Assembly (NCBI GenBank): GCA_027923505.1
Contig: BROI01000006.1
Coordinates: 868,001 to 932,000, forward strand
Direction: 5' to 3'
Length of the DNA: 64,000 nucleotides
Source: Mayamaea pseudoterrestris
Taxonomy: Eukaryota
The translations under genes and the position numbers were made by a program. Positions 10,527 to 43,666 of the stretch are shown here, piece after piece. The stretch's first letter is position 1; every line of letters starts with the position of its first letter. Under the pieces are notes generated by a model that saw only the letters and a list, made by a program, of their open reading frames with translations, did no database searches and was not told where the DNA came from.

Positions 10527-12335
10527 ATGAAACCCTACTACTCCTACACTTTCGATGAATCTGTTGGTCTCGATAATGGACTGAATTGGATAACACCGGA
10601 AGATAATATAACTCATGAATCGGCATACTCTATCTCAAATCAATGTCGATCAGTTTCAGAGACGAGCAAAGCACTTGGATCGTCATCGCATCATACCAAA
10701 GGAAGTTGGAACAGCATTGGTTTAGAAGATGTCTTTCAAAGTCCTAAGGGGCGAAAAAAGCATTCAGCTCGCAAAAGCATGTCGCATCGGCCCATCAACA
10801 ATCGCTATAACGACCTTGACGGAATGAGTGCGGCGTTCCCTTCTGAAATATCGATATATGCTGAGCACGATGAGGGACTTTGCTACTCCCGCAATGACTC
10901 GGCTCTTCAGAGGCAAAGGCGTCTCTCTTTGAGTCAAGTCGGTCAAGCTGAAGAGTCGGCGAGCGAGTTGTCTAAGTCTTCGTCACTGGCAAATTGCAGC
11001 CAGCAAAGCGCTAACACCAATGCAGATGACGATATAAATTTGTCCAAACCAGTCGACGATAGAAAGAAGCAGACAGAAGACACAAGCAACTGCGAATTTA
11101 CGGCGGACCTCACGTGTTCGACGGACCTCGAACAAAGTTACACAGAGCACTTTCGCCCGTACCAGCACCATGATTCCATTTCCCTTGATGCAATTAGGGA
11201 GTTCCAGCCATGTCCGCAAGTGCTTTTGCCCGAAGACTTGATAGAGATTCTCAGTTTATCGACTGTGTCCGACAACGTAGAGTGCCCAGGCGAGCGGCTT
11301 CTGCCGGATCGTCAACGAGGTGACGCCGATCGAAACAATAGACGACGAGCAAGACGTTTGCTGAATGAAGTTCCTCCACATGTTGCACCTCGTGATACGG
11401 AACATTCGCGGCGGCGGGCAAGACAAAGCCCCACAAATACAAAGCGATGTTCTCGCCGTCACAAGAAGTTGCTCCAAAAACTGGAAAATTTTATTGAGGC
11501 AACTCCAGTGGGCAGCAAATGTACCGGTCGTGGTGGCCGGAGTGTTAGCGGTAGAAGCCGATCTACGGCGATAACCGTGGCTTCCGCGACAACGCTCAAC
11601 GGGAATCAACCTGACTCCAGCGCCAGAAACTTGAGACAAAGTAGCGGACAGTCTCACAAGCGCCGAAACCGACGGCAAGTCAGTGACCGTCACACAATGG
11701 CCAACGTTGAGTCGAGGGCCCGAAGAAGGGGTCGAAGTAGGAATTCGTCCGCAAGAAGCGCCGATTGCCGTACACCCGACGACTCGACACGCACTTTACG
11801 CCAAAGAGACCGCCAGTCTCGTTCGCGCACTTCCTCACTGCACCGACGTGTTCAAAGGGAAAGTGTGGATCCGGATCAGGCATTGAGACGTATGAAGAAC
11901 ATGAAAGGTATCATCGCAGGAACCTCCATCCAAACTTCTGATTTTGCATCGTCACCAGACCACGGAAGGAGAGTCAGCCACAACAATGGCAAAGCGAAAG
12001 CGTCTCAACAACTCCAGTTCGACCGACATCGCTCATCTTCGCCATCGAGTCGAAAATCACAGCGGCTGCACCATCTTCCTAGCTCAGACAAGTTGAACGT
12101 AATGGTTCCAGATACTCGCAGCTTCAACTATTCTGGAAGTTATCGTGATGAAGGGATAGTTGGATTTCTCGAACTCGCTCAAAGTGGGACAGACGAATTT
12201 AACACTAAATGTGAAGTTATTGATTCCAGACATAAAAGAGACATTGACGACATCCTCCGGGCTGCAGGGATAACAGACCAGCAGATTGCAGTGCTGCACA
12301 AACATGGCCTAAACATCATACCAGATAACAAGTAG
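10527..12335 (+). CDS. Hypothetical disordered Ser/Arg-rich protein with the conserved C-terminal motif (family member 1)
   Basis: ~600-aa ORF, first ATG at 10527. Ends DIDDILRAAGITDQQIAVLHKHGLNIIPDNK. Confidence 0.75.
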   Translation: MKPYYSYTFDESVGLDNGLNWITPEDNITHESAYSISNQCRSVSETSKALGSSSHHTKGSWNSIGLEDVFQSPKGRKKHSARKSMSHRPINNRYNDLDGMSAAFPSEISIYAEHDEGLCYSRNDSALQRQRRLSLSQVGQAEESASELSKSSSLANCSQQSANTNADDDINLSKPVDDRKKQTEDTSNCEFTADLTCSTDLEQSYTEHFRPYQHHDSISLDAIREFQPCPQVLLPEDLIEILSLSTVSDNVECPGERLLPDRQRGDADRNNRRRARRLLNEVPPHVAPRDTEHSRRRARQSPTNTKRCSRRHKKLLQKLENFIEATPVGSKCTGRGGRSVSGRSRSTAITVASATTLNGNQPDSSARNLRQSSGQSHKRRNRRQVSDRHTMANVESRARRRGRSRNSSARSADCRTPDDSTRTLRQRDRQSRSRTSSLHRRVQRESVDPDQALRRMKNMKGIIAGTSIQTSDFASSPDHGRRVSHNNGKAKASQQLQFDRHRSSSPSSRKSQRLHHLPSSDKLNVMVPDTRSFNYSGSYRDEGIVGFLELAQSGTDEFNTKCEVIDSRHKRDIDDILRAAGITDQQIAVLHKHGLNIIPDNK

Positions 12336-12340
12336 ACCTA

Positions 12341-13520
12341 TCAGCGTTGATTGATAATTTTAGTGATCGTCAGCCCAAGCTCGCGCAGCCCCTCCAGCTG
12401 CTCGCTTGAAATACCGACTTGATCTAACATTTTGAACATTACACTGCCGTCAGGCCGCTTCACGTCAGGCACATGCAAATACCTGCTAAAGTGGGGAGCC
12501 CTTGTGCGCTATTCTAAAGCAATCTCGATTGTCTGAATACCGACTGACAGATCGTCGACGTGATCTTATTGACCCTGTTTTCTCTCCGACAAACTGTAAA
12601 GGAAAATTATACCCTTCTCAGATTTGAACGTCTTAAACGAGTTGCGTTCACCAGCTGATCATTCTTAAACGTAGCAGAACTGTCGCTCCAATCTATGCCT
12701 GTTGCCGCCGACCGCTTACTGTTATCAAGCGCTATCGCATGGACTAGCGAGTTTGACTTCACCAAACTCACGCGGCCTAGACGGCGCTTGAGCAGCGGGC
12801 CAGCACTCTTGGTGCTCGTTCGGTGGTTACCCTCTCTCCGGCTTAGCGACCAGCAAGGTGCTGCTCTTGATGTGACTCGATTATACTTGTTCGACGAGTA
12901 ACGCGTCTGCCACCCGGCGTAACACTTGCACAAGTTGCAAGGTACTTGGACGAAACTAAAATTCGAGAACGCTTCGCTAGCCGTCTGGCTTTCGCTGCGT
13001 CTAATTCCTCTCGTCGCGCATGGCAGATGGGGATCATCAAAGCCATCCTCACCACATCCATTATCCAGTGACGAGAGTGGAGCCTCTTTTCTGTCCGCAG
13101 TCTTTGCTGTGGAGATCGAGTGGGTAGCGGATTATAATTAAATCCAGCGCTTTCGAGATGTCAGGCCCAAATCACTGGCACTTACTCTGACGATACGACG
13201 AAGAGTAGTAGGACGTTGTGCATGGCAGTTCCTCGGTGAATTCAGTGATTTCATGGGGCTCGAAGATGTCCTTTCCAAAACGTCCTCATTTTCATTCTGA
13301 CTGACAGCTCTCATATCAATCTGGTTGTCAATACTTTATCTTTGGGATAGTGGTGTATTGGCTTTGATGCTGATGACGCAGTGTCCCGATGTTTGTTAGG
13401 TGAAGCGACGTTTCTGCTTAGTGAAACTTTGCCTAGACTGCTCTCACCAACGGCAGCGTTCCAGACTGTCTTCGAGGCCGGCGATCGGATATATTGCTTC
13501 CATTGATTTGTCATCCGCAT
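12341..13520 (-). pseudogene. Disrupted (or multiply spliced) gene ending in the same C-terminal motif (family member 2)
   Basis: Minus strand 12450-12341 reads GSVMFKMLDQVGISSEQLEGLRELGLTITKIINQR*. There is an in-frame TAG at 12509-12511 and fragmented ORFs upstream. The 5' limit is uncertain. Confidence 0.55.
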
Positions 13521-14212
13521 CGAAACATGCCCAATTGTGCGTCAAGGATGATTCATTTGTCGTCTGTTGACAATACATTTGCTTACTGATGATCTCCTTG
13601 GTTTTTGCTGAGGCGAGAGCTGCGGCGATTTCGAGTATACATTTCCCGTGCTATTCACAAGCGGCTTTTTTGTGAAAATTTATCATCTGTACTAGCTTCA
13701 AACTTAACTGCAAAAACAATGTTGCCTTCACTCTTGGTTTTTGTTGACTTACTCCTTGTTGGCTGGGTCTACACTGCCGCGTCTTCCGTCGAAAAGAAGA
13801 AATCGTCAACTGAGAATCCTTCATCAGTAGAGTCTTCTCCGCCATCCTGAGCAGACTTTCTTCGCCTAGAAGCTTTGCCTTTTCCAATTAAGAATCGACT
13901 GGCTCGTCGATGAAGCATCATCGACTGACTGTGGACCGGGCTGATCCCAGTCAGGGAGTTGCGCAAATTTTGACGATAATCGCCTACTACCCTTGCCAGG
14001 AGAGCTTCGGGAGCTACTCCATTGATGCTGCTGATTCATTTTGTCATCGACTGAGCACACGTTGCTGTCGGAAGCAAAGGAGAAGGAGAGACTTTCACGG
14101 CTGACCCGACACCAATCGTGATCTTCGGGTGACAGGCTTTACAACTGTGCCTTGACTTCTACATTCATCAAAGCGGCGTCACGCATCTTGTTATTACGTT
14201 TGCAGCAATGGT

Positions 14213-17035
14213 TTATTTGTCTACCGTACTTCGACTTCTGCGTCTCCTAGATTCAGTGCCTGCAGGCCCATTTGCTTCCTCCGAGCTCGACGCATGCGAA
14301 CCACTTCCCTTGCGAGCGGAATGTAGCTCCTGCCGAGAACCGTTCATCTCGGATACACTGACCCTTATCTTGCGCACCCGCCCTTTGGAAGGTCGATGAT
14401 CAGTTGAACTCAAAGATCTATTAACGCCGCGAGAATCCTTTGGCGAGTTATGCCAGGTGCTCCCAAGGTTGTCGCGTGGCGACCGTTCCGAATGATTGCG
14501 GACATGCCCAGCTGCCGTCAAGCTTTCCTTCACCTTGCATTTGATTTGCGCCAGTACTTCAGGATCTTCTACACTGCGACCACTCGAGCGACGTCGAACA
14601 TGTTCTGAATTACGTTCACCACTTAAGCGCCGGCGTCCATGTTCTAAATGCTCTCGCTTGTCGCTGTTTGTACTGGGAGATTCCTCGTGCTTTTGGCGCA
14701 GCGATCGTTGAGTCTGCTTGTCATCTTCCACTTTATCGCCTCCACCTTCATGTCCGTACGAACGACGCCGATGGCTTGAGCTTTCCCCTATCAATTCTTT
14801 CTCTTTACCATCCTTGGCCTTTATTCGCGCCAGAAGGACATTGGCTTCAGGACGACCATGGATTGACTTTTTCTCCTCGTCACCTCGTCGGCTAGTACGA
14901 CGGCGATGCGATGAGCTGTTTGCTGCTTTGCTATCATCTGCATGCTTGTCGCTTGAACTGCTACGGTGCGACGATCGATGACTTCCGCTGGACTTACGCT
15001 CATCAGAGTGTTTGTCGCTTGAACTGCTACGATGGGATGAGCGGTGATTTCCGGTTGACTTTCGCGCCTCGTCGCGTCGATTAGAGCGCCTTTGGTGGGC
15101 CGACGTTTCAGTGTCAGTGTCCTTTTTGTGTGGACTCTCCGACTTGGGCGACCTAGCGTGTCTCGATCGTTCCATTTCTTTTTCCTTGGCTTTGATCAGA
15201 GCTAAAACCTTGTTTTCGGATCGTACAGGTGTAACATTATTAGCAGGCGCGTCTTCGTTGAGCAACTCCGCGCGTAGACTAGCATCAACAGAAGCAGAAC
15301 CCCTTTGCTTGGCTTTTATCATTTGCAACACCTTGTTTTCCGTACTTGCCGGCCGAAGACCAGGAGAATTACGAACATCGTCCTCTGCTAACAATTCCGC
15401 ACGAAGATCAGAGTCCACACTTCGTGTATTGTTCTCTTTGGCTTTTATCATTGCAAGTACCTTGCCTTCTGCAGTGCCTGCACGTGTGCTTGGTAGCTCT
15501 GACGATTCATCATCATCCGTCAAAAAGGACGGAACACCTGTTTCCTCGCGCATCTTCTCGCGTTCCTTTTGTCTTATGAGAGCGAGTACCTTATTTTCGG
15601 CAGTAACTGGTTCCTCTGCGTCTGACCCTTCGGTCGTCGAACGTGAGTTCTCTGCACCCGATTCTTCTGATCCAGATGCACCACCTTTGGACGATTTGGA
15701 TGCTGCCGAAACATCATCGGAATCCATGAAAGCGTGTTTGTTTCGGTTGAAGAAATTTCTTGGATTAAGTCGCTTTCGCTGCGATGGGCTTTTATTGGCA
15801 GCATCATCGCCCTCCCCATCCGCTGACGAATGCTTGAAAATGGCACCAAACACACCGCTAGCCTTGTTATTAATTCCTCCTCCACTATCATCGTTGCCGT
15901 TACTATCATCATTGTCGTTTATTTTTTGTCGTGCCCTTTGAAAGATGGACCGCCCGCCGCGATTGCTTTTATTCATTTCAATTTTTTCGTGCACATCAGT
16001 GGTAGAACCAGCAGCACTGAATACATTTGTACTAGTTGACTCTGTTTTTGGAGCATCCGCTAGCGACGACGATGGCTTGCGAAAACTTTCTTGACGCTTG
16101 CGAGCCAGGCGAGGGTTTCGCGCCTTGGCAATAGCGTCGCTCGAATTTCCTGCAAGAAGTCCAGCAGTACTACTCGAAGTAGCACTGACAGATTGGTCCC
16201 CGTCTGGCATTGTTCCATTACCAAGTGTGCTATTAATACCAAGTAATTGCGGACCTACGGAACGTTGCCGCTGCTGACGCGAAATCCCCTTGGCAGCAGC
16301 ACCTGGCACCAGCAAGGCACTTCCGACCGATTTTTGTCGTTGCTGTCGCGTCGTGACGGGCTTTTCGAAGCGCTTCTGCAGTGGTTGTATCTTGCCCCCA
16401 GCAGCCGGAAGATTAGTCGGTCGCCTTAAATTGGATTGAATTGGTATTTGACGTGCGTTTGCGGAAGGTTTGGCGGAGGAAGCCTTGTCCTTTCCCTCGA
16501 GCCAACCATTAGTCTCGTCGATTCCACTAGCATCGAATTTGAATGCATTATTGTTTCCGAAAAAATCCATTGACAATGTCTCTAAACCCAACGATTCCGG
16601 ATCCAAACCCTTGCTAGATGGACTGTTGCCTCGAGACGACAAGGAATGCCTCGGTGAATCACCTTCGGAATCGTCGTGACAATCAATTTGCATATCTGAC
16701 GTGCTCGTAGCTTTCGTGGTTCTATCGCCATTACCGCTGGCAGCAACACCCTGCGAATCATCAGTGCTCATACTATCAGCGTCTTGCTCGTCATTGTAGT
16801 CATCGAAATCATTATTGGCGTGCAGCAACTGCTTGTGTCGTGATGTCGTCGAGGCATTTTGCTGCTTGGCTGCCGCAAATGCGGATGGATCAAAATCCAC
16901 GGCGGAGAAATCAAAACTTTGCGTCGAGTTATGAAAGAGGTCTTCATTTGATAGCCCGTCTGTCTTTAGCTTGCTCAATGAAGCAAGTTTACTTTGAGGC
17001 TTGGCTCGATCCGATGCGCTGCCGGAGTTTCTCAT
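14213..17035 (-). CDS. Hypothetical 940-aa disordered protein with internal ENKVLxxIKAKE repeats
   Basis: Long uninterrupted ORF. It may splice further 3' (GTACGG...TGTAG near 14229-14159), which I could not resolve. Confidence 0.8.
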   Translation of the reverse strand: MRNSGSASDRAKPQSKLASLSKLKTDGLSNEDLFHNSTQSFDFSAVDFDPSAFAAAKQQNASTTSRHKQLLHANNDFDDYNDEQDADSMSTDDSQGVAASGNGDRTTKATSTSDMQIDCHDDSEGDSPRHSLSSRGNSPSSKGLDPESLGLETLSMDFFGNNNAFKFDASGIDETNGWLEGKDKASSAKPSANARQIPIQSNLRRPTNLPAAGGKIQPLQKRFEKPVTTRQQRQKSVGSALLVPGAAAKGISRQQRQRSVGPQLLGINSTLGNGTMPDGDQSVSATSSSTAGLLAGNSSDAIAKARNPRLARKRQESFRKPSSSLADAPKTESTSTNVFSAAGSTTDVHEKIEMNKSNRGGRSIFQRARQKINDNDDSNGNDDSGGGINNKASGVFGAIFKHSSADGEGDDAANKSPSQRKRLNPRNFFNRNKHAFMDSDDVSAASKSSKGGASGSEESGAENSRSTTEGSDAEEPVTAENKVLALIRQKEREKMREETGVPSFLTDDDESSELPSTRAGTAEGKVLAMIKAKENNTRSVDSDLRAELLAEDDVRNSPGLRPASTENKVLQMIKAKQRGSASVDASLRAELLNEDAPANNVTPVRSENKVLALIKAKEKEMERSRHARSPKSESPHKKDTDTETSAHQRRSNRRDEARKSTGNHRSSHRSSSSDKHSDERKSSGSHRSSHRSSSSDKHADDSKAANSSSHRRRTSRRGDEEKKSIHGRPEANVLLARIKAKDGKEKELIGESSSHRRRSYGHEGGGDKVEDDKQTQRSLRQKHEESPSTNSDKREHLEHGRRRLSGERNSEHVRRRSSGRSVEDPEVLAQIKCKVKESLTAAGHVRNHSERSPRDNLGSTWHNSPKDSRGVNRSLSSTDHRPSKGRVRKIRVSVSEMNGSRQELHSARKGSGSHASSSEEANGPAGTESRRRRSRSTVDK

Positions 17036-17559: not shown

Positions 17560-19704
17560 ATGAGTCCATTCAATTGCACTCCAATGGCGGAAGAAACGCA
17601 GGTGGAGGCGATTGAGCGGCAAAATTCGGCCTTTGGCGATAACTACTCCATCAAAAGTCGTTCGACGAATAGTCATCATGCTACTATTCGATACCATGAT
17701 GAGCCGGAAGCTGATTATGATGAGGGAGCGACTCTTTTGTATCGGTAAGTGCCGTATTCGTGCTGTGACAGAAAATGAAAATGGTCAAGGTGCAATTTGC
17801 AATGCCTCGCCAATATGCAAATTCATTATGACACTAACATAACCCACCTGTTCTTTATTATTACACCACACAGGCACATTGAGAACAAAGATTGGGACCA
17901 GGCCCTTGGACGATTGGAAGGCGCACCAGTAGAGGCCAAGACTTGGGTGTTTCGCCGTGAAGCCAACTCGGAAAAAACTCGTTGGCGATTGCTTCCAATT
18001 CACGCCGTCTGCATCTTTCGGGCACCCCTCGCTCTCATTGAAGCCTTGATTGAAGTCTACCCGGATGGTCCGCAAATGAAGGATGACCAGGGCATGCTGC
18101 CAGTACATTTGGCCTGTCGCAATGGAGCGAGCAAGGGAGTCGTCATGACATTGCTCGCGGCTTTTCCAGAGTCCATTCACGTGCGCGATCGCAAGGGGCG
18201 CTCACCTGTCGACCTTGTTCTCAACAGTGCGTCGGCCAATAAGGAAGCCGTGTTGGTGGCCCTCAAGAAGTTTCGTCGCGAGGTACCGGAATCGCCCACA
18301 AACATGAACATGGAAGTCTTGTATCATCACAACAATACGAATACTACAAACCTGAGCAGCACCAGGAGCACGCCACTGACAATTGAGCCGGCCATTTCCA
18401 AGCGAGAAAAGACTCCTCGAAACAACTCGATTGGAAGTAGTGTTGGTGCTGCGCCAACGCCTCACTCACTAGCGGTGCCACCAACTCCTGCTGCTCCAGG
18501 ATCACCCGTCGTCAAGGAAGTTGACTACGAGCATCGCACGATTCTCTTTCGCCTCATTCTCAAGAAAGAATGGAAAGCAGCATCAGCTCGTGCAGCTTCG
18601 CATCCAGAGGAAGCACAGACTTGGATCGTCACCAAGGGGTTCAACGGCAACCTGCGGTTCCTTCCGCTGCACAAGGCGTGCGTTCTGCAACCACCAGACT
18701 ATCTCATTGAGGAGCTGTTGCGGGCGTATAATCCGGCGTCGATGGAAAAGGACCAGGATGGATGGCTGCCCTTGCACTGCGCGTGCTTTTACGGCGCCAA
18801 CGAAAAGGTCATTTCCGTGTTGCTGGCCGCTAATCCTCGCGGAGCACAATCCAAGGACGACGAAGGTCGACTGCCGCTTCACTACGCTTGTCTCAAGGGT
18901 GCCGCGCAAGGCTGCGTTGACGCGTTGCTGCAGTGCTTTCCCAAGGGTGCCATGAGCAAGGATGACGAGGGCCGCTTGCCGATCCATCATGCCTGCGGCA
19001 AGGGAGCACCGGAAGGTGTCATTGACGCCTTGCTCAAGGCATCTCCCAAGGGAGCGCAGTCCAAGGATGACCAGGGACGCTTGCCGCTCCATCATGCCTG
19101 CCGCAAAAATGCAAGTGAGCGCGTCATTCGAACACTCGTCAAGGTATATCCCCGGGCCGCCCAAATCAAGGACGACCAAGACAAGCTGCCGATTCACTAC
19201 GCATGCCAGCATCAAGCGTCATCGCAGGTTGTTTCGCTCCTCCTGCAAACGTATCCCGAATCAATAAGCGTCCAAAACGGATTTGGTTACACGCCACTCG
19301 CAGAAGCCAAGTCGCAGGACAATGTCAAGATGGAAGCTGTGATTAAAATCTTAGAAAAGGCCAAGAAGGAGCAAGACAAGAAAAAGGCTGCCAATAACAG
19401 CGAGTACAACATTTACGACGCCAAGATTGCCAACCTAGAAGATAAAGTGTACAGTTTGGAAAAGACCTTATCAAAGGTTGCCATGTTGGGCAAGGAAATA
19501 AAGGTGGACTTGACACGCAAGCAACGAAACCCGACGGAAGTATTGGAACGGTTTGCCGATCGTCTCATTGAAGTGAGTAGTGGGAAGAGTAGCTCGTCGA
19601 ACAGTGGCGCTAGCAAGACGCCACTTAAGAGCCGTCAAGCAACTCCTGTCAAGGGATTGTTTGGCATTGGTGGCGGTCGTTCCAAGAGTGCCAAGGCCGT
19701 GTAG
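17560..19704 (+). CDS. Ankyrin-repeat protein, two exons (intron 17745-17873)
   Basis: About 7 D..GRLPLHxAC repeats. The intron GTAAGT...CTAAC...CAG joins GATLLY-R-HIENKDW in frame. C-terminal coiled-coil-like segment. Confidence 0.9.
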
Positions 19705-20430: not shown

Positions 20431-20472
20431 CTCCTCTTGAGCTACTAACGCACCGTGGCTCACCAAAGCTAT

Positions 20473-23400
20473 TTAACCATACATGAATCCAGCAACCAGT
20501 TTCCGAAACGTTGCCTGCGTTTGACCCTTCGTCAAGCAGTCCGCAAAGTTGTCGGTCCCATCAATCTTGATAGGATGCGCAATCCCCGCCGCAGCAGCCT
20601 CTCTCGTCTTGTGATAAGCAATCGCCACATGCTTCTTCTTCAACAAGCTTTCCTTCATCGTCGAGTTCATGATGACTGCGCCGTTGTCCCCGCAAATGAG
20701 ACTTGGTTTAGACACCTTAACACCCAGACAACGAAGCATGTAACGGGTTGCAATCAGCTCTTCCACAGCTGTTCGCATTGCACAAAACTCAGCCCCATAC
20801 GTAGACGTTTCAATCGCTCCTTGTCGTTTGCTCTGATGAAACACAGGAGTCCGACCAATAGCAATCAAAAGTCCTGTAATGGATCGCCTGGTAACCAAAT
20901 CGTGAGCATGGTCCGAATCAACGAAAATGGTGATCGCCATCTTATCAATCAATGGTTTCGGTAAACTTGTATCAATCTCCTCGCTGGCTCCTTCATACAA
21001 ACCCGCAAACTCCTTTGTGAAATCAATCTTTAAAGCGTCTGCGCCGCCCTCATAGATTGGATCACGCGAATCAACAACAATACGCCGATTCGGACGTCGT
21101 TTGAGATAGCCAAAGACTCGTAGCACTCGCTCGAGATGCCCCCTACGTGGGCATGCCGTAAAACGCGCAAGAGATGTATTAGCATGAGCGACATCAATCC
21201 TTCCAATGGTAACGATCCATACAAGCATGCCAATAAGCATTTGATACTTTCGATGCTCGTCGTCGTTGAGCACTGGCAAATCATCCGTCTCTGGATGATC
21301 ACCCGTTGCTGTCGGATTAATGTGCTTCCGCAATTCACCAAACATGTCCTCGACACGCTTGATGGCCTCAGTCAAATACTTCTTGCAACCAATACACCAG
21401 CGACCGCGTTTGTCCTGTTTGTAATCGTTTCCAAGGTAGTAATCCGGCGGACCAATCGCCTTGACCGAGTAAACAAGCTGGATTGCCTCCATGATGGCTT
21501 CCGGCTTCTTAGCGACAATCATAAAATCGTCAACGTGCGTACAGATATACTCATAGTGAGTCTCGTCTTCTGCCAAACGAATCCATACGTCTTTGTCATA
21601 CCCAGTCGGTACGAAACCAATGCCTCGAAGTGTGTCTGCAAAGTGCGCGTGCCATCGTTCACTTGAAGATGACAAACCATACAGTGCCTTGACAATAATA
21701 ACAACACAACCTTCAAGATCCGGTCCAAATTCGGGACCAGCAATGGCATAAACTTTCTCCTTGGTATAGGCATTAACGTAGGCGTTTGCGACATCGCCGC
21801 AGAGCTGTTTCAAACCCGCTTTGTGAGCGATAACATGCAACAAACGAACGCTGATACCCTTTACCGTCGATGAGTATATATTGTGATCCAAAGCATCAAC
21901 CAAGTGACCGCCAGCAACCAATCGCGCCTTGCGTCTCAGATCCTGCTTAACGTCAAAAATCATGACAAGCGTCGTCTTCTGATAGCCGCTCCCTGGGTCA
22001 TGGTTTGCCGGTTTAAAGTCGAAACAGTCGAGATCGGTCAGCGATTTAATCTCAAGCTTTATAGCGTCCTGCCAATAGGTATCGCCATTCTGCTCATCCA
22101 ACTTAATTGCGTCGCGAACATTCCTTGGCACCTGCACTCCATACTTGAGTGTCGGCTTGCGAGCGAAAGGTTTCTTCTTCTTCTTGTGGCTCGTGTTCCG
22201 ACGGACAGCATAAATCTCGTCATTATCGTCAAGACGAAAGTCATATAGACGCTGCATCCGCCGAACTGAATGATCCACATCACGAAGAGTCTTTTGCGCC
22301 CATCCAAAGAGTCGATCTCGCTCGGTTGCCGCCTTGCCTGATCGGGTAGGCCGTTCCTTTACAACGTATCGCGCCGTGAGTAGCGGATAATCAGCTTTCA
22401 TATCCTTCAGCTCTTCCCACGTCGTATACCCTGAGCTCCATTTAACAATGAAACGCAGTCTGCCTTCTTTCCATCCGTGATTGACGATTGACGTGACTTT
22501 CGCGCCGCCAATCTCCTTGCTCTCTTGTAACGACGACAAAGCATCATTGATCTCGTCGACCATTTCAAGCTCCTTCTCCGTCGCTTCCAAGGGATTAAAG
22601 CCCGACAATAGATGCTCCTCTGACTCATCATTGCCAGCGTCGCTCATATCGTCATCTTCATTCCTTGGTGAAAGCCCAGGTAAATCATCTTCGTCGTCGC
22701 TGTCGCTGCCATTGTCGCCTGGACCTGCAGTCTCCTCTGACGCCGATAATTCGTCATCACTGGTAGCGTCATCTGCCCCCTTCTCCTCTGAATCCACACT
22801 CGTGGTAGGAGGAGAGTCTTGAACGCTGCCATAGCTATCGTCATCGCTTTCGTTGCTTCCGTCGCTGCTGCTGTCGCTCTCGTCGTCTCCGCTGCTCGAT
22901 CGCTCGCGCTGCTTCTGACGTTTTCGCACAACAGCACGCTTCTTGTTTCTCTTTCGCTTTTTATCAAAATGTTGTGACACAAGATCGAAAGCCTCGTCGT
23001 CAAGCTTGTACTCCGCGACAGACTCGTTGTCTTCCGGTTTACGCGCCTTAACAACGTTGCGAATCAGCTCTCTGCCCTTCTCCCAGTTTCCTTCAGGCGT
23101 CGTCCAAATGCGATATGTAAATGCATCTCCATGATCCCACGCAATACCAATAAAGCGTCCAGGACAGAAGTTCGGCTCCGGAAACTTTGCCGTCGGTTCA
23201 AAGTACCAAACGGGCTGCCAAAAGGTGAACCGAAAAACCGAAATGTCCGGCGTCATGCCATGAAAACGTTCATAGGGAGTTCTCCAATCGAGGGTCTTGC
23301 GAGCAGTGTAATTCAGACAGTCAACAATAAATTGTAAGCAGTAGCACCAAAACACAAGTGGTGCCTTCGCATAGCGCAAGTTCAGAATCACTCGTTTCTT

Positions 23401-25974: not shown

Positions 25975-26019
25975 CATCGTTCGCACAATCAACTTTCACT
26001 AATGTAGCAGTACTATTCT

Positions 26020-26033
26020 TGGGTCTGATAAAC
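26020..26033 (-). promoter_or_regulatory. Primer-binding site of element A (internal/half-tRNA type)
   Basis: Abuts the 5' LTR. Its complement TGGGT-CTGATAA-AC has the shape of a tRNA anticodon arm. Confidence 0.55.
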
Positions 26034-27529: not shown

Positions 27530-27604
27530 TCATTTTATTGATTGCCTTGACTTTGTGTTAGATGATTTTGTTGTTTTGAACACACATATTCTGCGCGTCA
27601 AATG

Positions 27605-30600: not shown

Positions 30601-31645
30601 GAGGTGCACCACTAGCAGATCCAACAAGTTGTTGGATCTGCTCAGTCTCACTGTGGCATACATGGTGATGGATGCTGAGGTGCAACTGACCAACTTATGG
30701 CCCATCATTGACAACAAACATGATTTGAAAGAAATTGGAGGGCTTAGTAGGTAATGCTGATGATCCCTGCAGCCAAAATGGGAGCAGGGCTAGCACATTC
30801 AACCAATGGCTGAATGTGCGGAGTCTCAGGGCATAGTGATGGCTTCCACGCCCAAATGGACAAGTCTATGAGTTCTATTCATTGTTCAAGTTTGTATTAG
30901 TTGTATTGTGGGGTCTGCAGGCCATTTTGGAAGTCTCACTTGCCACTTGAGGTGCATTGCTAGCAGATCCAACAAGTTGTTGGATCTGCTCAGTCTCACT
31001 GTGGCATACATGGTGATGGATGCTGAGGTGCAACTGACCATTTTATGGCCCATCATTGACAACAAACATGATTTGAAAGGGATTGGAGGGCTCAGCGGGC
31101 AATGCTGATGATCCCTGCAGCCAAAATGGGAGCAGGGCTGGCACATTCAACCAATGGCTGAATGTGTGGAGTCTCAGGGCATAGTGATGGCTTCCACGCC
31201 CAAATGGACAAGTCTATGAGTCTCAATCAATGTCCAAGTTCATATTGGTTGTATTATGGGGTCTGCAGGCCATTTTTTAAGTCACATTTGCCACTTGAGG
31301 TGCACCGCCAGCAGATCCAACAAGTTGTTGGATCTGCTCAGTCTCACCGTGGCATACATGGCAATGGATGCTGAGGTGCAACTGACCAATTTATGGCCCA
31401 TCATTGACAACAAACATGATTTGAAAGAATTTGGAGGGCTCAGTATACAATGCTGATGATCCCTGCAGCCAAAATGGGAGCAGGGCTGGCACATTCAACT
31501 ATTGGTTGAATGTGCACAGTCTCAGGGCATAGTGATGGCTTCCACGCCCAAATGGACAAGTCTATGAGTCTCATTTAATGTTTGAGTCCACAATTGGGTT
31601 TATTATGGGGTCTGCAGGCCATTTTGGAAGACTTACTTGCCATTG
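27605..31645. repeat. Satellite 1: ~348-bp unit x ~11.6
   Basis: GATCCCTGCAGCCAAAATGGGAGCAGGGCT recurs mostly every 347-349 bp, with one shorter unit near 30470. Confidence 0.97.
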
Positions 31646-32912
31646 AGAACCACCATTCGTCGCTCCCATTCTCCTCCCAGTTACATCCCAGTTGAGCTTA
31701 TCGAGACGCCTCGCAGTGTACGATTATAAACGCCATGAAGTTAAGTATATGCTACTTTTGATTGGCCGGACAGCCATCGGTTACGCTGTAGAAGTTGCCA
31801 CTCCAAGTGCCCGCCACTCCTCGCCCACCACCTTTTAAAATCTCCAGCAAACTTGACCTGCACGGATCGAATGACGCTCATCAAGGATCTAATGCTCTGA
31901 GCTAATTCTGGCTACTAGAATATTCCTAATTTGGCCCCAGCAACTTTTGACTACAAGGCTGCAACTTGCGACTGAGTTGAGCTACCCTGTGTTAAAGCAC
32001 TTGCTGCCTTGACGGTTCGTGCTGGTGCAAAGCCTCTTACTGTTAGTCGTAGTGCTATGTTGTAGTTGGCATGCCTACCTGAGATGAAGCCTTTGTTATA
32101 TCTTTGTGTGTCAGAATATGTTGCCTTGTTATTTAAGTATTTGAGTATCACTACCTTGAACAAAAGACCGGGACTTAACACATCGTGCGAGTGATATTGC
32201 TGCCAGTAGGCAACTTGTCGCACGACAGCATTTTGGCTTCGGTTTTGTCCCCTTCAAAAGCATATGATGTCAGTCAAGGTTGTGTTTCAACGGGTACTTC
32301 TACGATACTACAAGCCTCTTCCTGATTGCAATGATAAGTTCCCTGGAGTGAGCAAAGCAACAGCAGGCACTGACGCATAATGTCAAGGTAGCAGAAGCTA
32401 GCATTGTCAAATTTCAATACATCAGTTTGGGCAGAAGGTAGGATTTGAAAATAATTTCAATGCGGATATCAACAAGCAACCAGCTTGCTTTTCGGAGGAG
32501 GCCGAGGCGCCGGCCGCGGGACATTAACTTAGCTACGTGCTTAAAACATGATTGATTGACATCTTAGCCAATCGCGTCGCACGTGCGTCAATGAACTATA
32601 AGCAAAGTAGTACAATCTGGGCGTGGATTTAATCGTGAAACATGTTTGTAACAATTAGGCTTCTATTGGTCTTCAAAGGCTATATAAAAAGGCTATTTTA
32701 GACGTTTTCACGTGGCACGCTTCATATAGCCCCTACTCCAATTGTTATGTCGGATCAGAAAGCTCAAGTTCCTCTCACTTCGGATTGGAGTCGGGAAGAT
32801 CGCGCTGCAACCTGCCACAATCCGCATGCGAATCACCGATTCAACCTCTCTGCCGGTTTGCTTCACTGATAAGTGCGGCGTCTTCCACTTTGCTACCCTT
32901 ACAACAACCAGC

Positions 32913-34193: not shown

Positions 34194-35956
34194 ATGGCGT
34201 CCTTTCCGGTCCCGACCGTCACAGCCCACCAGGGTTCCTGGGGCCCTCCTTCACTAGAAAACGGAAACAATAATCTAACCGGTTTACCAGGAAACATTGA
34301 AAAGTTTGCTACTCTTCCGTACAGTCCATTTGGAAGATCCGATCGTCTCGGCCGCGTCGCCGACTTCACCGGCGGCCACAACGCCGGCGACAATTACTTT
34401 GGCCGCCGCGCCGACAAGCTACAAAAGGGCCGCCGCGAGTTCAAGCAGCGTCAGGAGGAGGAGGAGCATGCCATTGACAGTTTCCAGCTGGTGGACACGA
34501 CCAAGGCAGCCACGTCGAAGCGATTCGTCAATTTGGCTAGCAAGCGCAAGCAGCAAAGTACGCGCTTGCGGCAAATCAACGCGCGACGAGCCCAAGCGGC
34601 GGGAGGAAGTGCCGGCACTGGAGGACAGCAGCTGGATCGCATGACGCGTCCAACGACTGGAGGTCGCTTTGGTGGTGGCGGACCTGGTGGAAGAGGAGGC
34701 GGACGCGGATATGGCGGAGGTCGGGGTGGACGCGGCACCTGGCAGAATCGACCGGATCGGCAACCGTCTGTTGCAGTGCAAGGGACATGGAAGGCTGTGG
34801 AAGATATTGATTTGGCGAAACTTAGCAAGAACTTGGTTGCTCCGACGACGGTTCCTCCTCCGTCTGACATTTTGTGGTGCGGATTCTTGGACGAGTACAA
34901 TGACAATTATGACAAGGTTACCTCTCGGGTTCCCGTGGCGCTCAAACGCATGGAAAACAAGGAATTTTACCCAGTCACCACGACGGATGATCCAGTCCTT
35001 GAAAAACTTGCGATTGACGGAGCCGGACAAGTGTTTGTGACGGATGCGAGTACGTACAATACGACGCTTTTGCGAGAGCTCTCATTTTGTCACGCTTGCT
35101 GACGCTCTTTACCTTTATTCTCTTTTGTTCAGTCTTGGCGCATCTCATGACTTGCACTCGATCAGTCTATCCTTGGGACATTGTCGTTCAAAAGCTTCCC
35201 AATGGAACATTGTTTTTCGACAAGCGCGACAATAGCCAGCTTGACTATTTGACCGTTCAAGAAACCTCCTATACGCCTCCAACCGATGAGGAAGGCATCA
35301 ACACGGTGGAGCGTCTTGGTTTGGAAGCGACGATTATCAACCAAAACTTTTCGCAGCAAATTTTGAAAAAGGGTTCTCGCAAGGAAATGGACTTGCCGAA
35401 TCCGTTTTTTGACGAGGATGACGCCGACGGCATGGAACCGGCGAGCGTTGCCTACCGCTACCGCAAGTTTGCATTGGACGAATCCACGACTGTCATTTGC
35501 CGCACGGAGATTCACGGCTTGGTCAAGAAGGATCAATACATGACGGCCTTTGCCTTGAACGAGTTTGCCCCCACGACGAGCAATTGGCGTGACAAGATTG
35601 ACCAGCAGCGCGGCGCCGTCTTGGCGACGGAACTCAAGAATAATTCCTTCAAGCTGGCAAAGTGGACGGCGCAGTCGCTCCTGGCGGGTGTGGAGCAAAT
35701 GAAGATTGGTTTCGTCAGTCGCACGCACCCCAAGAATAACTACGAGCACGTTGTCTTGGCGACTCAGTTTTATCGCCCCAAAGATTTTGCGACGCAAATC
35801 ACGCTCAATGAAGGATCCATGTGGGCTATGTTTCGCATGTTTGTAAACTTGTTTCAGAAGCAAGAGCCAGGCAAGTATGTGCTCATGCGCGAGCCAAACA
35901 AGGCGGTTTTGCAAATTTATGCTGTTCCGCCTGAAACGTTTGAGGATGAAGAATAA
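34194..35956 (+). CDS. EIF3D: Eukaryotic translation initiation factor 3 subunit D (intron 35050-35132)
   Basis: [37 protein letters not shown], spliced [43 protein letters not shown]. Intron GTACGT...CTGAC...CAG. Confidence 0.96.
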
Positions 35957-36022
35957 GCAAGCAGGTGGTAGCTAGCAAAATATAAAATAAAATCTTTTGG
36001 TTATAATTACTTATTATATATG

Positions 36023-37626: not shown

Positions 37627-39705
37627 ATGGTTGAGGAGGACAGCGGCATGCAAAGGCAGCAGGCTCGTTTCACAAAGCATGAGCAAAAATCTGCCGTTGC
37701 AGCTGCGAAGGAACATCCGATTTTGCATGTGAACGAAGCAAGCAACAGTAATGAACCACCAGTGACGGAGACAATGCCACCTTCCACAATCTACACTCAA
37801 GTCTTGCTACTTTCGGATGCGCAAATGAGCACCTTGACGCCTCGACGCAGCAGCGACAAAGCAAAGGCGACCATTCCAAGCTCGGCGCCTCATCGATTGG
37901 AGCAGTCATTCGAGGGACGCGGTAGTCTTTGGAACGAGCAAATGCACATGAAACTTCCCTTGACATGTTCACCGACTCCTCGGAAAAAGCATGCCAATCT
38001 ACAAGGTTACATGTTCGATGCTGCTGCTGCATCATCCAATCTAATCTTTCCGCCGCGATCGCCTGCTCGACAAGCGTCATGTTGCAGCTCCGTGAGCATG
38101 AGTAGCAGCTGCGACGATGATGACTGCGAAGACAAGAACTGCAACCCGCCTGGTCGGTTTCCGTCTCAAATCGCTTACACAAACAATAGTATTTCGCCTG
38201 CATCCTCTGCTCGCGTCGTGTTGAGCTTTGCGCAGGCGTCCATCCTGTCGTCGACGCAGTACTCTTCGGTCGATGCAACTACCGCCGCCGCCATTCCAGC
38301 AATGTCTCCGCTTCGTCGGGTTGCTTCTGCTCCCATGAAGGATGCAAGTCATGTCAAGAGTCGTCATCACTACTTGCAGCGCTCCATGACCTTGGACGAT
38401 AGTGACCATCAAATGCAGCAGCCGCTGCAACAACTTGTTCCAGACCGATGGAAGTGCAGCAACGAGTTTACCGTTTCAGCCCGCCGGGAGCTTCTTCACG
38501 GGAATGATGACGCCAGCGAAAACGATTGCAGCTGCGTCCATGAACGAAACGTTACGCAGCCTGCGTTACCGCTTCCACTCATGGGACGCACCAAGAGCAT
38601 GGACATGGCCGTTCCCGTCCCGCGTCGCCGGCGAAGTGTCAGCAGCTCCGACTTGGAGCTCTTTCAGCACTCGCAACATACCTGCAGCACCATGGGAGAC
38701 TGGAGCAGCAGTCGTTTACTCTGCCACGACGAAGTACATTGCTATGAAAGTGGCAGCAACAGTTTCCGACCGCGAAGCGCAAGTCTGGATGAGCCGGCGC
38801 ATGTACCGACCCGGCGGACAAGTATTCGTGCCAATGCTAGCAGTGTTGACCTATACCAAGCTTATAATGATATGAGTGAGCAGTGTAATGTTCCCAGGAG
38901 CTCAGTGCACTCGACGTCTCTGCAAAACACGCATAGTAGCAGCATGCCGATCTTACCACGACGCATCTTGTCGAGCACAGATCTCGCGTCGGATGCATAT
39001 GACGAGCAGCCGCACGCCTCTGGCATGTTTCTGGATGACTATGAGCATTTGAATGAGACGATGGACGATACGCGAGTGACCAAGTCATCAATAGACGATA
39101 AAGTGCAAGCCGTCAAGGTTGTCAACCGCGACGCTGCCGCTGCTTCGTCCTACACTGCCAAGCGCAAATCAATGGGCTCCAAAGTCTCAACAAAGACGGA
39201 AGCTATAGAAAGCTCCGAGGACTCGACTTCAGGCTGGAGCGACAATTGGTCACCGTCGCCTACACGCAACGTTTCAGGTCGATTCGTGGACTTGCACAAG
39301 GCGGCGAGCGTTCCCTGCTTGACATGTCCACAAAAGCCGCATCATCATGGCATGATTCCATCCGCCGTGCGGCGATTGGTCCGTCGCACTCGCTCAGCGA
39401 GTCCGACGAGTCAAGTGCATCCTGGATTCGGCCGACTCATGCAGGTAGTGGCAAACGTTGTACGAAAGGAGCACCACCAACATCGCAAGAGTTATTCCAA
39501 GGACAACGAGTTCCTTTCCTCCACCGAGTTTTTGGAGCCGTCGTCCTTGTACATGGATCAGCCGCAGCACGGACCAACCCGCTTGGTAGTGGTGCAAGAT
39601 GGGAGCGCCGTCACTCACGTTGCTGACATGAAGAAGCGGCGGTCTTCCTCCTCCTCTGGCAGCCAGCCGAGCATGTTCCGAACAAAGCTCTTTGGAAGGT
39701 CATAA
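37627..39705 (+). CDS. Hypothetical disordered Ser-rich protein
   Basis: 692-aa ORF with repeated PxRRxxS motifs. The true start is uncertain; 37378-37617 may be an upstream exon. Confidence 0.7.
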   Translation: MVEEDSGMQRQQARFTKHEQKSAVAAAKEHPILHVNEASNSNEPPVTETMPPSTIYTQVLLLSDAQMSTLTPRRSSDKAKATIPSSAPHRLEQSFEGRGSLWNEQMHMKLPLTCSPTPRKKHANLQGYMFDAAAASSNLIFPPRSPARQASCCSSVSMSSSCDDDDCEDKNCNPPGRFPSQIAYTNNSISPASSARVVLSFAQASILSSTQYSSVDATTAAAIPAMSPLRRVASAPMKDASHVKSRHHYLQRSMTLDDSDHQMQQPLQQLVPDRWKCSNEFTVSARRELLHGNDDASENDCSCVHERNVTQPALPLPLMGRTKSMDMAVPVPRRRRSVSSSDLELFQHSQHTCSTMGDWSSSRLLCHDEVHCYESGSNSFRPRSASLDEPAHVPTRRTSIRANASSVDLYQAYNDMSEQCNVPRSSVHSTSLQNTHSSSMPILPRRILSSTDLASDAYDEQPHASGMFLDDYEHLNETMDDTRVTKSSIDDKVQAVKVVNRDAAAASSYTAKRKSMGSKVSTKTEAIESSEDSTSGWSDNWSPSPTRNVSGRFVDLHKAASVPCLTCPQKPHHHGMIPSAVRRLVRRTRSASPTSQVHPGFGRLMQVVANVVRKEHHQHRKSYSKDNEFLSSTEFLEPSSLYMDQPQHGPTRLVVVQDGSAVTHVADMKKRRSSSSSGSQPSMFRTKLFGRS

Positions 39706-39862
39706 GTATGTAAGCTAAGTTAAAACATAAATCATATCCGTAGCATACAATAGAAAAAGCCATTCACAATCGTTCTTTTATTCATTAACTTGGCTATTCC
39801 ACGCGGTGATTAACATTTCCAAGTGCTCCTTCTATCGCACATGAGAATGTCCGTTGTGAAAG

Positions 39863-41640
39863 CTACGATGGTGTGATCTTCAATCCGGCCTTTTTTAACA
39901 TCTCAAGCTGGTCATTCGTTATACCAATAGCTTCAATGGTCCTGATGGCTTCCCCGGCTTTATCCGTTAATTCTTGGTCCAATGGCAGGTTCCCGGCAGG
40001 GTATACTCGGTTTCTCCTCCCGCAGTTGCAGCCGCCTTCTTCCACAATTTCCCAGCAACCTTAAAGGGCGATTTGGTCACATTCATGAATCTTTTCGAGA
40101 CGCTGGTGTTCATATGAACAACTTCTGGGCGCGATGTTGTCGGCGATTCATCTTTGAGTGCCAGCAAAGCGATCTCAAATTGCGCCGGCTGTCCGTCGGT
40201 CTCTATATCGTCCGACTCATTGTCGGACACGTTTTCATCTGGCAATGGCAAGCTGCCTTTGCCCGCACTCAAGAAGATTTGTCGTACATTTTGCTTCCCG
40301 AGCTGACGCATGTCGCTTGCCCTTACTCGATGACGCATTTTGGCGCGGGGATTGCCATGAAGGTTATCTGTATTCGTTGTGCTGTTGCTCCGACTGTGCA
40401 TTGTAGTATTTGTACAGCGCGGACTAGTTGCAAATTCAAGTTCAGCGCCTTGCTCTGAATCAGTCAGATCGTCCGCAGTTCCGACGGTACCCATGTGAGA
40501 TGACTTGGACTCGTGATTGATTTCTTCGTCCTTTGTTGGGCTTGTAGGTAGCAAGTCGGCACATCCAGATGGCGCTCGCAAAGGCGCTTGACGTTCTGGT
40601 GATTTGTCTTGCATCTTTGATGGCTGCTGAATGGCATCTTTGCGTGGTCGGGTGCTACTTTGTCGATGACGCCGCGACGACTGTCGCAGGTGCGTCGATT
40701 GCTCGTGATTCTGCTGGCCTCCTTCTCCGTCGACCACACGGCGGACAACGTTTTTTCTCCGCCCTTGGACGTCGACAAGTGGAGCTTTGCGAGTGAGGGC
40801 GACAAGCTCGCCGTCAGGACCAATCTCGAGTTGCCGGGTACTTGTCAATGATTTTTTTGGCGATCTAAGCTGGGGAGAATATCCCGTTTTCGTGACTACC
40901 ATAGCCGATGGTCCCTGAGAAGATTTGTTACCGGAACGCCTTGAATGTGCCGTTGATTCGCTCGCAGAATGTTGACGGTGATGTGTTGCCTGTCCAGTTT
41001 TCTCCTTGACTGCTCTCATATCACGGACGCTGTGTGCTCGCCTATTTCGCCTGTCGCTTTCCCTCGTCCCTGGTTCGCTTACTAGATTGCGACTTGAATG
41101 ACTTTTGCAATTCAAACTAAGTATCTTGTCGCTGGTAAAGAGTGGCTGTTTGGGAGTTTCGATTAGTAGTAGATCGTTTCCCAAAGAGACTTGCGATTTG
41201 GGCGCGCGATTCAGCTTCTTTACATCAATAGTTCCAGTCGATGAGTAGTTCTTTACTGCAGCATCAATATCGATGCTCTTTAGCATCAAAATGCTGCTGT
41301 CCAACGACTGTGAACTGGTATCCAAAATACGCTGAAAATCGTCAGTTAGCGCCAGATCTAAACTCGCTTTCGTCGGCCGACTATGAGCGCCTTGTTGATG
41401 ATGTGTCTCGGTCTTTAACGTGGACTTTGGCCTCACTCGTTGAGGCGACGAGGGATCAACTTTTGCAGTTACTGCAGTCCATATGATGTCCAGGGGTTCG
41501 TCGGCAGCTTGAAGGGATAGGGTGCTGTCCTTCTCAGCTCCTTTCTGAATTCGCTTTAACGATGAGCGACGCCGACCGCCCAACCTGCCTCCGTGTTTCT
41601 TGCTTGTAGGGCTGTCAGCCTCGCTCATCGCTGGATTCAT
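39863..41640 (-). CDS. Hypothetical disordered protein with the C-terminal motif (family member 3); frameshift near 40045-39970
   Basis: 557-aa ORF overlapped by a second frame ending EAIRTIEAIGITNDQLEMLKKAGLKITPS*. Confidence 0.7.
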
Positions 41641-42373
41641 CAGGCTAACTTTCTGGTGCTTCCAGGAGATTGCTACTATTTACGGCTTGCCTTTGCTTGC
41701 TCAGCTAACAGCTAAAGGCAAGGAAACGAGAAATGAGGCTCTGACAAATTAATGCACGTCAAGCCTCCAGTCTCAGCTTTCTCTTACTTCTGCTAGCGGA
41801 AAGAATCAAGAGCAGCTGCAATGGCTGCTTGAACGGATACTTTGATTGGCAAGTAAGTTGTCGTGCTGTGCACTTTTGGCTCCTTTGGCTCGCCGCGCGT
41901 GGTGGATCTCGAAGTAAGGTGCTTGGAATTACGAGACCTTCAATTGTCGAAGCGCAGCCCTCTTGATGTTCATTTACAATAACGAAGCTCTTACTTGTTA
42001 ATTGTCTGGTTCGCCAAATGTTATAGTAACCGTCGTCGGAAATGTTTTGATCCCAGAGCTGTGCTCATTGCCGCAGATTCTGGTCTCGCCGCATTTTGTC
42101 CGATACATTCGTGCCAATTTCGCAATGCGGTCATTGAAGTAATCTTTTAGGGCAATAGTAAAGTTTGGTCGTGTGGGCGTCAGCCGTTGCATCAATCAGT
42201 TTTCAAGATGCACGACATCATCGAACCTGCAAGGCGTCACATTACGTAGCTATCTCTACAATGCAAAATAAAATCCGTTTGCATCATACTGTACACCAAG
42301 AAATGATCCAGACAAATTTTTAAGCATTTAAATTAGGCTGACAATCATATTCTTTATATTTTGTTAATTCTAT

Positions 42374-43666
42374 TTACTTCCTTTGAATCGTTACACCCAA
42401 TCGTTCCAGCTTGTCCACCTGTGCCTTGGTGCACGCTATTCCAACGCGTTGCATAATCTCAAAAAGGGATGCTTCCGGCATGGACGAGTCTATGGTATGG
42501 ACCGAACGCGTATCAGATGCAACTGATTGATTACTGCGACACTCAAACGCTCCAATGGACGCTCGTCGTCGCTGCTGCGTTCTACGCTCCGTCACCACTG
42601 GTGCAATGTCATCGAAATGCTCCTCGTTCCATACAATTGGAGATCCAAATTCGGATTCAGTCTCTTGTGCAGGTCCATGAACACTAGCGCTAAGACTGTG
42701 CCGTCGCATGCGACGCTGAAAGGGGCCTTCCTGATGCTTCTCCTGCACCACTGATCTCGCGACTGGCTGGTCATATTCGTACTGATACAAGGCAGGTGCG
42801 CGCCCAATGCTTGTACGTCGAACGTTTGGCCGGATTTGGTTCGCTTTTAGGGTGCTGCGATCAGTGTTGCGCTTGCAGGAGCGGGACCGACGTCGCCGGT
42901 AACTGCCCTGGCGGCCAAAAGAGGGTCGTTGCGGTTGCTGTTGTAGCGGCGATACTGACGTATGATCCGACGATTGGGTGCTGTGAAAGGATGCTTCCGA
43001 AAGATCTTGGTTGCTCGACTTTACCGTGGATCGGTGCTTGGATCGCGATCGTCGCTGTTGTTCCAGTGCTTTGTGTTCGGACGATTTCAATAAACGCGAC
43101 CCTCGTCTTCCTTCGCTTGGCTTGGGAGGTGATTTCGAAGGTCTCGTGTTCTTTCGAGTAGAGTGCGATGATGTCGTAGGTAATGGGCTAACGTCTCGAT
43201 GACTGCTAAATGACTTTTTGACCCCCTCTGCAACTTGTTCCTTTGGCCGACTGCTTTTTCGACTGTGATGTTCTGACTTTGACAAACCTGAATTACTACC
43301 AGAGCTTGCTCGCAACGTCTTGTCATCCGACAGCTTTGGCGAAACGGATGTCGAAGATCCAGAGTAGGAAGACCGACGTGACATGCAGCTGCCATTCGGT
43401 TTCTTTGTTGTGTCAACGTGGCTAGAGAGTCGCTTCCCCTTGTCACGATCGCTTGATCGTTCAGAAGAAGTCTTGTTCGAGGATTGAGACTTGGAACCCA
43501 TTCGCTTTTCACCGTCACATGAGTCATTCGAGCTGCTATTTGCCGTCGCCGTTGTATTTGCCGACTCGGATGCCGATTCATGTTCGCTCCCCTTGTCCAA
43601 CGGACTGAGGTGCGGAAGGGTTGCTGGACGCTGCTTGATAAGCGGAGTGCTTTGAACTCTATGCAT
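42374..43666 (-). CDS. Hypothetical Ser/Arg-rich protein with the C-terminal motif (family member 4)
   Basis: 430-aa ORF ending SLFEIMQRVGIACTKAQVDKLERLGVTIQRK. Confidence 0.75.
   Translation of the reverse strand: MHRVQSTPLIKQRPATLPHLSPLDKGSEHESASESANTTATANSSSNDSCDGEKRMGSKSQSSNKTSSERSSDRDKGKRLSSHVDTTKKPNGSCMSRRSSYSGSSTSVSPKLSDDKTLRASSGSNSGLSKSEHHSRKSSRPKEQVAEGVKKSFSSHRDVSPLPTTSSHSTRKNTRPSKSPPKPSEGRRGSRLLKSSEHKALEQQRRSRSKHRSTVKSSNQDLSEASFHSTQSSDHTSVSPLQQQPQRPSFGRQGSYRRRRSRSCKRNTDRSTLKANQIRPNVRRTSIGRAPALYQYEYDQPVARSVVQEKHQEGPFQRRMRRHSLSASVHGPAQETESEFGSPIVWNEEHFDDIAPVVTERRTQQRRRASIGAFECRSNQSVASDTRSVHTIDSSMPEASLFEIMQRVGIACTKAQVDKLERLGVTIQRK

Follow-up and report, generated by a model that had tools for sequence, protein, structure and literature searches.

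What does one short motif do at the very end of several long proteins that otherwise show little resemblance to each other? The question is raised by a stretch of 64,000 bp from the freshwater diatom Mayamaea pseudoterrestris (assembly GCA_027923505.1, contig BROI01000006.1, hereafter C6, positions 868001-932000; the whole stretch is called the window below), in which inspection of the bare sequence had singled out four genes with a common C-terminal motif of about 30 residues, the tail. M. pseudoterrestris is placed in the Naviculales, beside Phaeodactylum (PMC9724779, accessible part), and its genome assembly comprises 30.6 Mb in 41 contigs. The four genes are member 1 (g1; 10527..12335, +), an intact Ser/Arg-rich open reading frame (ORF) of 602 aa that ends in the tail; member 2 (g2; 12341..14039, -), a pseudogene homologous to the intact 588-aa protein P0013; member 3 (g3; 39863..41640, -), a 557-aa ORF with the tail out of its frame; and member 4 (g4; 42374..43666, -), an intact ORF of 430 aa. 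We found the tail to be shared by a family of proteins encoded in a single chromosomal island and to be conserved better than the bodies among orthologs, and we read it tentatively, with rather less than even confidence, as a protein-contact module by which soluble disordered members of the family pair with each other.

A regular expression for the tail, applied to all six frames of the window, gave exactly four matches, the first Gly of each lying at position 12267 (+), 12415 (-), 39925 (-) or 42442 (-), and in each case a stop codon follows 3-7 residues downstream. The four tails are therefore where the original prediction had placed them (12240..12332 on the plus strand, and 12341..12439, 39863..39946 and about 42377-42465 on the minus strand); the sequences it quoted were correct, and its start positions were accurate to ~15 bp. 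When the first 47.6 kb was resampled with its dinucleotide composition, four matches occurred in none of 100 copies and one match in a single copy, for a pattern that was set post hoc; the same is true of the patterns used below for motifs B and C, and the thresholds and bounds of the island were likewise set once the cluster had been seen. Hidden Markov models (HMMs) from which one ortholog group at a time was left out recovered nine of ten groups at 24-44 bits, compared with at most 10.1 bits for 3006 control C-termini and at most 12.9 bits for 300 shuffles per group. The tenth group, that of member 4, carries a 2-aa insertion and reached only 5.9-8.6 bits; its profile aligned to that of the rest with a score of 23.7 (probability 73%), while 100 column shuffles gave at most 12.8. 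The tails thus exceed shuffled sequences, as had been expected of them, and member 4 is, judged by its sequence, the least secure member of the family.

Among 16 aligned tails, two Gly and one Ile are invariant, and an Ile, a Leu and a Gln nearly so; the conserved positions are the two Gly, the Gln, a Ser/Thr that opens the second helix, and aliphatic residues. Paralogous tails are 11-79% identical in pairs. The residues beyond the GxxI end differ between members and the distance from there to the stop varies from 3 to 15 residues, which favours a folded unit over a terminal tag; PTS1, PDZ-ligand, EEVD and CaaX tags were rejected on this account.

The family is larger than the four genes first noticed. 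When 664 kb of C6 (568-1232 kb) was scanned with an HMM, 11 copies of the tail were detected, i.e. nine loci and two recent duplicates, all of them at C6:859-977 kb, and the best non-member scored 7.5 bits. The seven copies outside the window lie at C6 859150 (+), 861051 (-), 943430 (-), 960642 (+), 965115 (+), 968099 (-) and 975561 (+). Those at 859150 and 861051 arose when the block of members 1 and 2 was duplicated; they lie ~19 kb upstream, and the two blocks are 92-95% identical. Members 1 and 2 stand tail to tail with 5 bp between their stops, as had been described, and the stops of a second tail-to-tail pair, 965115/968099, are 41 bp apart. Across the genome, a partial tail pattern had 33 matches, eight of them inside the cluster; none of 40 other candidate sites, made up of 20 of the 25 off-cluster matches and 20 selected sites, scored above 7.2 bits (of the five matches dropped, three had in-frame stops and two were duplicates), although members departing from the patterns would be overlooked by such genome-wide pattern and candidate-site tests. 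Five further protein searches with single tails gave cluster matches only. Between C6:852 and 978 kb, 15 of the 29 ORFs of at least 400 aa are Ser/Arg-rich and poor in hydrophobic residues, compared with 1 of 104 outside. What had been taken for two gene clusters is in reality one island of ~126 kb that extends beyond both ends of the window. Eight of the 11 tails end long open frames, and three copies are broken in this assembly.

Relatives were also found in other assemblies. A profile search with four sequences returned 13 proteins: member 4, five orthologs, and seven others that were discounted, being either generic hairpins or unexplained. The orthologs are P0004 and P0005 (of member 4), P0007 and P0008 (of member 3) and P0013 (of member 2), and P0014, which is full-length, falls into one cluster with P0008. 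In metagenome contigs, a degenerate DNA pattern matched 11 loci, one of which, L057 on a 1.7-kb contig, is a member, with a new Ser/Arg-rich ORF of 505 aa that ends in the tail and scores 42 bits when left out; two 51-aa frames with scores of 20.5 bits were not counted as members. The tail is C-terminal in all six sequences from other assemblies, which we infer to come from diatoms. With these six and the seven additional copies in this genome, an outcome named beforehand as refuting the original prediction, a lack of further C-terminal matches, did not occur. As for searches that gave less, one protein search came back empty and so missed the known ortholog P0007, another returned only proteins of this genome, and a third P0004 and P0005; a search for related loci, made for synteny, gave no relative, and the exact protein of member 1 has no entry in the protein collection searched. 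Since the four-sequence profile search missed five of five known paralogs present in that collection, the missing matches in Phaeodactylum, Fistulifera and Seminavis are no evidence of absence.

In the orthologs, conservation is highest in the tail, at ~60-80% identity compared with 27-46% for the body. The figures for tail and body are 74 and 46% for member 3 and P0007, 62 and 33% for member 3 and P0014, and 61 and 27% for member 2 and P0013, the last body value being computed from the duplicate with its stops included; the tail of member 4 is 72-75% identical to those of P0004 and P0005. P0007 and P0014 share 20 of their last 25 residues, compared with 3-16 of 25 elsewhere in the two proteins. 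A separate observation concerns P0009, an 83-aa protein from three short contigs in ENA, whose last 20 residues include 17 identities to the tail of member 3 and whose N-terminal part is unrelated; it may be a chimera or a case of convergence.

The bodies to which the tails are attached are long and Ser/Arg-rich and likely to be disordered and soluble, disorder being assessed by amino-acid composition rather than with a disorder predictor. Tail-bearing proteins have a net positive charge and contain no transmembrane-like or signal-like stretch (maximum hydropathy 1.02); a tau-like charge patterning was tried and rejected, being inconsistent between members. Several bodies share two internal motifs and are thus not wholly unrelated. 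Motif B, approximately [KR]x[IV]x[LVM][KR]ASD[LM]G, occurs in six and motif C, SFDFSxVx[WF], in five of 13 island proteins, compared with none of 31 flanking ORFs, while among unrelated ORFs of the 664-kb scan B has two matches and C one. Six of the seven matches of motif C in the whole genome fall in the island; a loose motif B pattern is unspecific at that scale (5 of 58). In BLASTP, motif B and the helix-like stretch that follows it connect P0013 with the proteins of 965115 and 968099 (E 3e-4 to 0.014). In all four proteins with both motifs C precedes B, and where the motifs co-occur their order is C, B, SPF, tail. Member 3 has motif B at 40309-40335 and the SPF motif at 40048-40071, and the pseudogene of member 2 retains motif B near 13197 in addition to its tail. 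The lack of similarity elsewhere that had been ascribed to the four genes does not hold for members 2 and 3, which have an internal motif in common with other cluster genes, and the tail-bearing proteins, thought to be varied proteins recruited by a common tail, are better read as diverged paralogs. Searches of motif B in PDB and Pfam gave nothing below E 0.028, and none of the 13 island proteins has a PP1 RVxF motif. Of the RRxS-rich bodies that had been described, member 4 is an example, with six sites compared with 0.9 expected from local shuffles; members 1 (2 vs 1.7) and 3 (2 vs 0.6, p 0.13) are not. Overall, RRxS or RSxS is enriched in g4, g943, g960 and g965, and not in g1, g3, g968, g975 or the orthologs.

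The 27-residue tail is predicted to form a helix-loop-helix hairpin with an extended end. The AlphaFold model based on the 16 tails (pLDDT 77, pTM 0.46) has helices at positions 7-19 and 24-32, in member 1 a helix, a GIT loop, a second helix and an extended GLxI end; an earlier model from 11 sequences was weaker (pLDDT 65). None of the 16 tails passed the Pfam-A cut-off (best E 0.041), and no Pfam match was obtained for the four window ORFs or eight further members and orthologs, apart from an ankyrin match in the N-terminal part of P0017. This protein (C6:968099-974850) is annotated publicly as 1864 aa, joining an ankyrin/coiled-coil ORF to a tail-bearing ORF of 1365 codons. PDB sequence searches with the tail returned designed repeats or weak partial matches, Foldseek found no match at E 0.001, and the ESM Atlas, whose result is uninformative, gave no usable match for the tail or motif B. 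A fold search with models of 41-42 residues reached at best Z 3.9 and 3.4, which is background level and no demonstration of a new fold. The original statement that the domain is unrecognised is accordingly upheld for Pfam, PDB sequences and Foldseek. In the literature, judging by listings and the openings of abstracts, no description of the tail family was found; five of the locus tags are absent from two supplementary files of PMC9724779, where the genes could be listed elsewhere under other identifiers.

What stands of the docking or oligomerisation module first proposed is an unrecognised, conserved, always terminal and by prediction helical module on low-complexity bodies. If it pairs family members, its history and working could be the following. 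Local duplication would have generated the family, the bodies would have diverged almost past recognition while the short motifs C, B and SPF and the tail were retained, and the cluster would turn over by birth and death. The conserved aliphatic positions of the tail may be one part of a contact surface, the other part being supplied by a second tail, and the basic, kinase-site-rich bodies may bind polyanions or other proteins under the control of phosphorylation. Several observations weigh against this reading. Motifs B, C and SPF are all missing from members 1 and 4, so that for them paralogy beyond the tail is only presumed; several island genes have no tail; and RRxS enrichment is lacking in members 1 and 3 and in three full-length orthologs. 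Hairpins of the form helix-GI(S/T)-helix are commonplace as capping motifs, and this one matches designed proteins too. Comparison of member 1 with its duplicate (C6:859150-861039, 89% identity) gives a dN/dS of 0.74, and of 0.88 over the 32 codons of the tail, with no sign of protection there, compared with 0.04 and 0.07 for control pairs from another duplication; together with the three broken copies among 11, this indicates that some members can here do without the tail.

Owing to the breaks, only two of the four window members, which had been presented as genes ending in the motif, encode a tail-bearing protein in this assembly. Member 2, beginning near 14039, matches P0013 in fragments in several frames, with several in-frame stops and frame changes. 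It is disrupted, as had been said, although not by a single premature stop in a long body; the 940-aa ORF at 17035-14213 is a separate gene. Four of its stops are common to the duplicate at C6:861-862 kb; assembly error is thereby rejected as their cause, and member 2 died before the duplication. The frameshift reported for member 3 was confirmed: one base near 39990 puts the tail out of the frame of the 557-aa ORF, and the NCBI protein is this tail-less form, whereas the orthologs P0007 and P0014 are intact. Contigs of sequencing runs were compared over the stretch that holds members 3 and 4, members 1 and 2 lying outside it. Those of runs X2 and X5 lack an extra base and cross the site without a gap, and run X1, from another study, has one extra base there, so that the break of member 3 looks like an allele; an assembly error is unlikely here, although X2 may be the source sample. 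No run is recorded as RNA. However, the contigs of X4 and X5 (two samples of one study) are RNA-like, as they omit the GT..AG intron of an eIF3d gene and follow genes, and they cover member 3 (40006-42037; 39855-40828) and member 4 (42481-43744; 42377-43746).

The strongest rival to pairing among family members, possible though somewhat less probable, is that the tail docks on one common receptor outside the family, such as a scaffold, a motor, a kinase or a neighbouring ankyrin-repeat protein, and does not associate with itself. The conservation data are equally compatible with it, and the single tail per protein would suit one docking site. Furthermore, at two places in the island, window 17815-19704 and C6:973342-974850, ankyrin-repeat genes adjoin tail genes, but such genes are common in diatoms and the adjacency is for that reason weak evidence. 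Against a single receptor, paralogous tails range widely in pairwise identity and their surface positions are free, whereas a fixed receptor would usually be expected to constrain exposed residues. A bolder extension of pairing, to which we assign a low probability, takes the island as an operon-like kit for an undescribed diatom structure, e.g. a cytoskeleton-linked scaffold specific to raphid pennates, in which about 12 disordered proteins would co-assemble by the hairpin and motifs B and C would bind common targets; synteny and co-expression would then be expected in other diatoms.

Still less probable is the view that the tail is left over from a common ancestor, in a cluster that is decaying, and has little present function. 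The pseudogene of member 2 in both copies of its block, the frameshift allele of member 3 under RNA-like contigs and the dN/dS of member 1 all fit decay, but the tail is better kept than any other part of the orthologs, eight of 11 copies are intact, and X1 has the base that member 3 is missing. It is improbable to a slightly greater degree that the tail binds ubiquitin, as a minimal UBA/WIYLD-like unit, or serves as a degradation signal. Its first helix and GI(S/T) loop resemble the helical-hairpin repeats of the profile match P0001, which we take to be WIYLD-like, and a UBA domain appeared in the fold search at Z 2.6, a background level; no UBA, CUE or WIYLD match in Pfam was found for the 16 tails, and the model has two helices before the chain ends where a three-helix bundle would be expected. 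Least probable of all is an amphipathic membrane anchor, for although both helices show moderate amphipathicity (moments 0.19-0.93) and the tail stands at the C-terminus, the core has a net charge of -4 to +2 and at most one aromatic residue, unlike typical membrane-binding helices, and tertiary packing is suggested by invariant residues, namely Gly, Gln and the beta-branched Ile.

Besides the tail genes, the island contains Ser/Arg-rich genes without a tail and ordinary genes. The 940-aa gene (14213..17035, -) has motif C at 16892-16918 and a variant of motif B at 14345-14371, as well as six spaced short amphipathic repeats (~ENKVLAxIKAKE; 14534-15592, -), a candidate multivalent binding repeat to judge from sequence, with no match in Pfam. 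It is constrained relative to its duplicate (dN/dS 0.15). Among the duplicated pairs, the ankyrin pair and that of the gene at 9052..10050 (-) were omitted from the dN/dS comparisons owing to frameshifts or insertions. The latter gene, which contains motif C at 9574-9600 and motif B at 9139-9171, is truncated near 9122 by a Copia-type element and has a full-length copy at C6:857210-858937. Tail-less genes of 692 aa (37627..39705, +), convergent with member 3, and of 635 aa (44031..45938, +; seven RRxS sites compared with 1.0 expected) lie further on. The ordinary genes encode an NAD-binding oxidoreductase (46382-47302, +) and eIF3d (34194-35956, +), the latter with an intron of 83 bp that the contigs confirm. 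Copia-type retroelements occupy window positions 871-3246, 4820-8890 and 20473-25995; the one that truncates the 9052..10050 gene has an inverted counterpart at C6:833550-838233, with 99.6% identity. An origin of the tail from the N-terminal part of the Copia Gag proteins in the island is not supported, as hhalign scores of 10.4 and 5.4 for two single sequences fell below the shuffled maxima of 17.2 and 14.9.

Large tandem arrays also lie within or next to the island: ~15 kb of a 169-bp unit at window 48653-63816, 11.7 copies of a 348-bp unit at window 27606-31647, and more large arrays at C6:977-982 kb and 998-1007 kb. At the edge of a 174-bp array near 47.5 kb, the depth of run X1 is ~30-fold higher. 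A centromeric or heterochromatic context is possible. Just past the island there is a tandem segmental duplication of ~15 kb (C6:982976-998145 and 1007711-1023120, 94% identity), and at C6:770379-799097 (-) lies one open frame of 9573 codons.

Much of the diatom proteome consists of unannotated low-complexity protein; here, a bounded set of such proteins has three to four shared motifs and one chromosomal address. The 27-residue tail and motifs B and C are ready baits, and runs with and without the frameshift of member 3 offer a natural comparison. If the members do co-assemble, they would constitute a eukaryotic scaffold system that is lineage-specific and whose genes are physically clustered; failing that, what is left is a small domain without a name and a clear example of disordered proteins evolving by birth and death.

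Several known systems invite comparison with the tail. The hxxhGI(S/T)xxQh half weakly resembles the GTPase-binding domain (GBD/PBD) of WASP (1cee, PF00786; 1cee_B E 1.3, positions 9-25), and the beetle protein P0010, a match of the profile, has a sub-threshold PBD match; the second half of the tail (LxxxGLxI) differs, and no member matches PF00786. The spacing G-I-x3-Q-h-x2-L-x3-G-h is like that of the Rad51/RadA N-terminal, SAM-like and helix-hairpin-helix (HhH) domains. However, these are domains of four or five helices, whereas the diatom tail ends after two, and they were neither among the PDB matches to E 10 or E 3 nor found in Pfam. WH2 (PF02205), a helix followed by an LKKT-type motif, gave no match, and the third position of the LxIT end of the tail is Ile, not basic, in 16 of 16 tails. 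Small dimerisation modules, i.e. those of HNF-1alpha, PKA (D/D) and p53 (tetramerisation), are like the diatom tail in having ~30 helical residues conserved beside a disordered or variable chain, but the tail has no sequence match to them, and the structural resemblance to HNF-1alpha (1jb6) is at background level (Z 3.5, rmsd 2.7 over 33 aligned residues with one model; Z 2.6, rmsd 4.5 with the better one). The algal linkers EPYC1 and PYCO1 likewise combine a low-complexity chain with short conserved motifs; the island proteins differ from them in that they have no signal- or transit-like N-terminus, that the tail stands once, at the end, instead of being repeated, and that several genes form an island. 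In kind, disordered proteins that end in a short helical module are a known design, of which the present sequence family is new and the island layout unusual.

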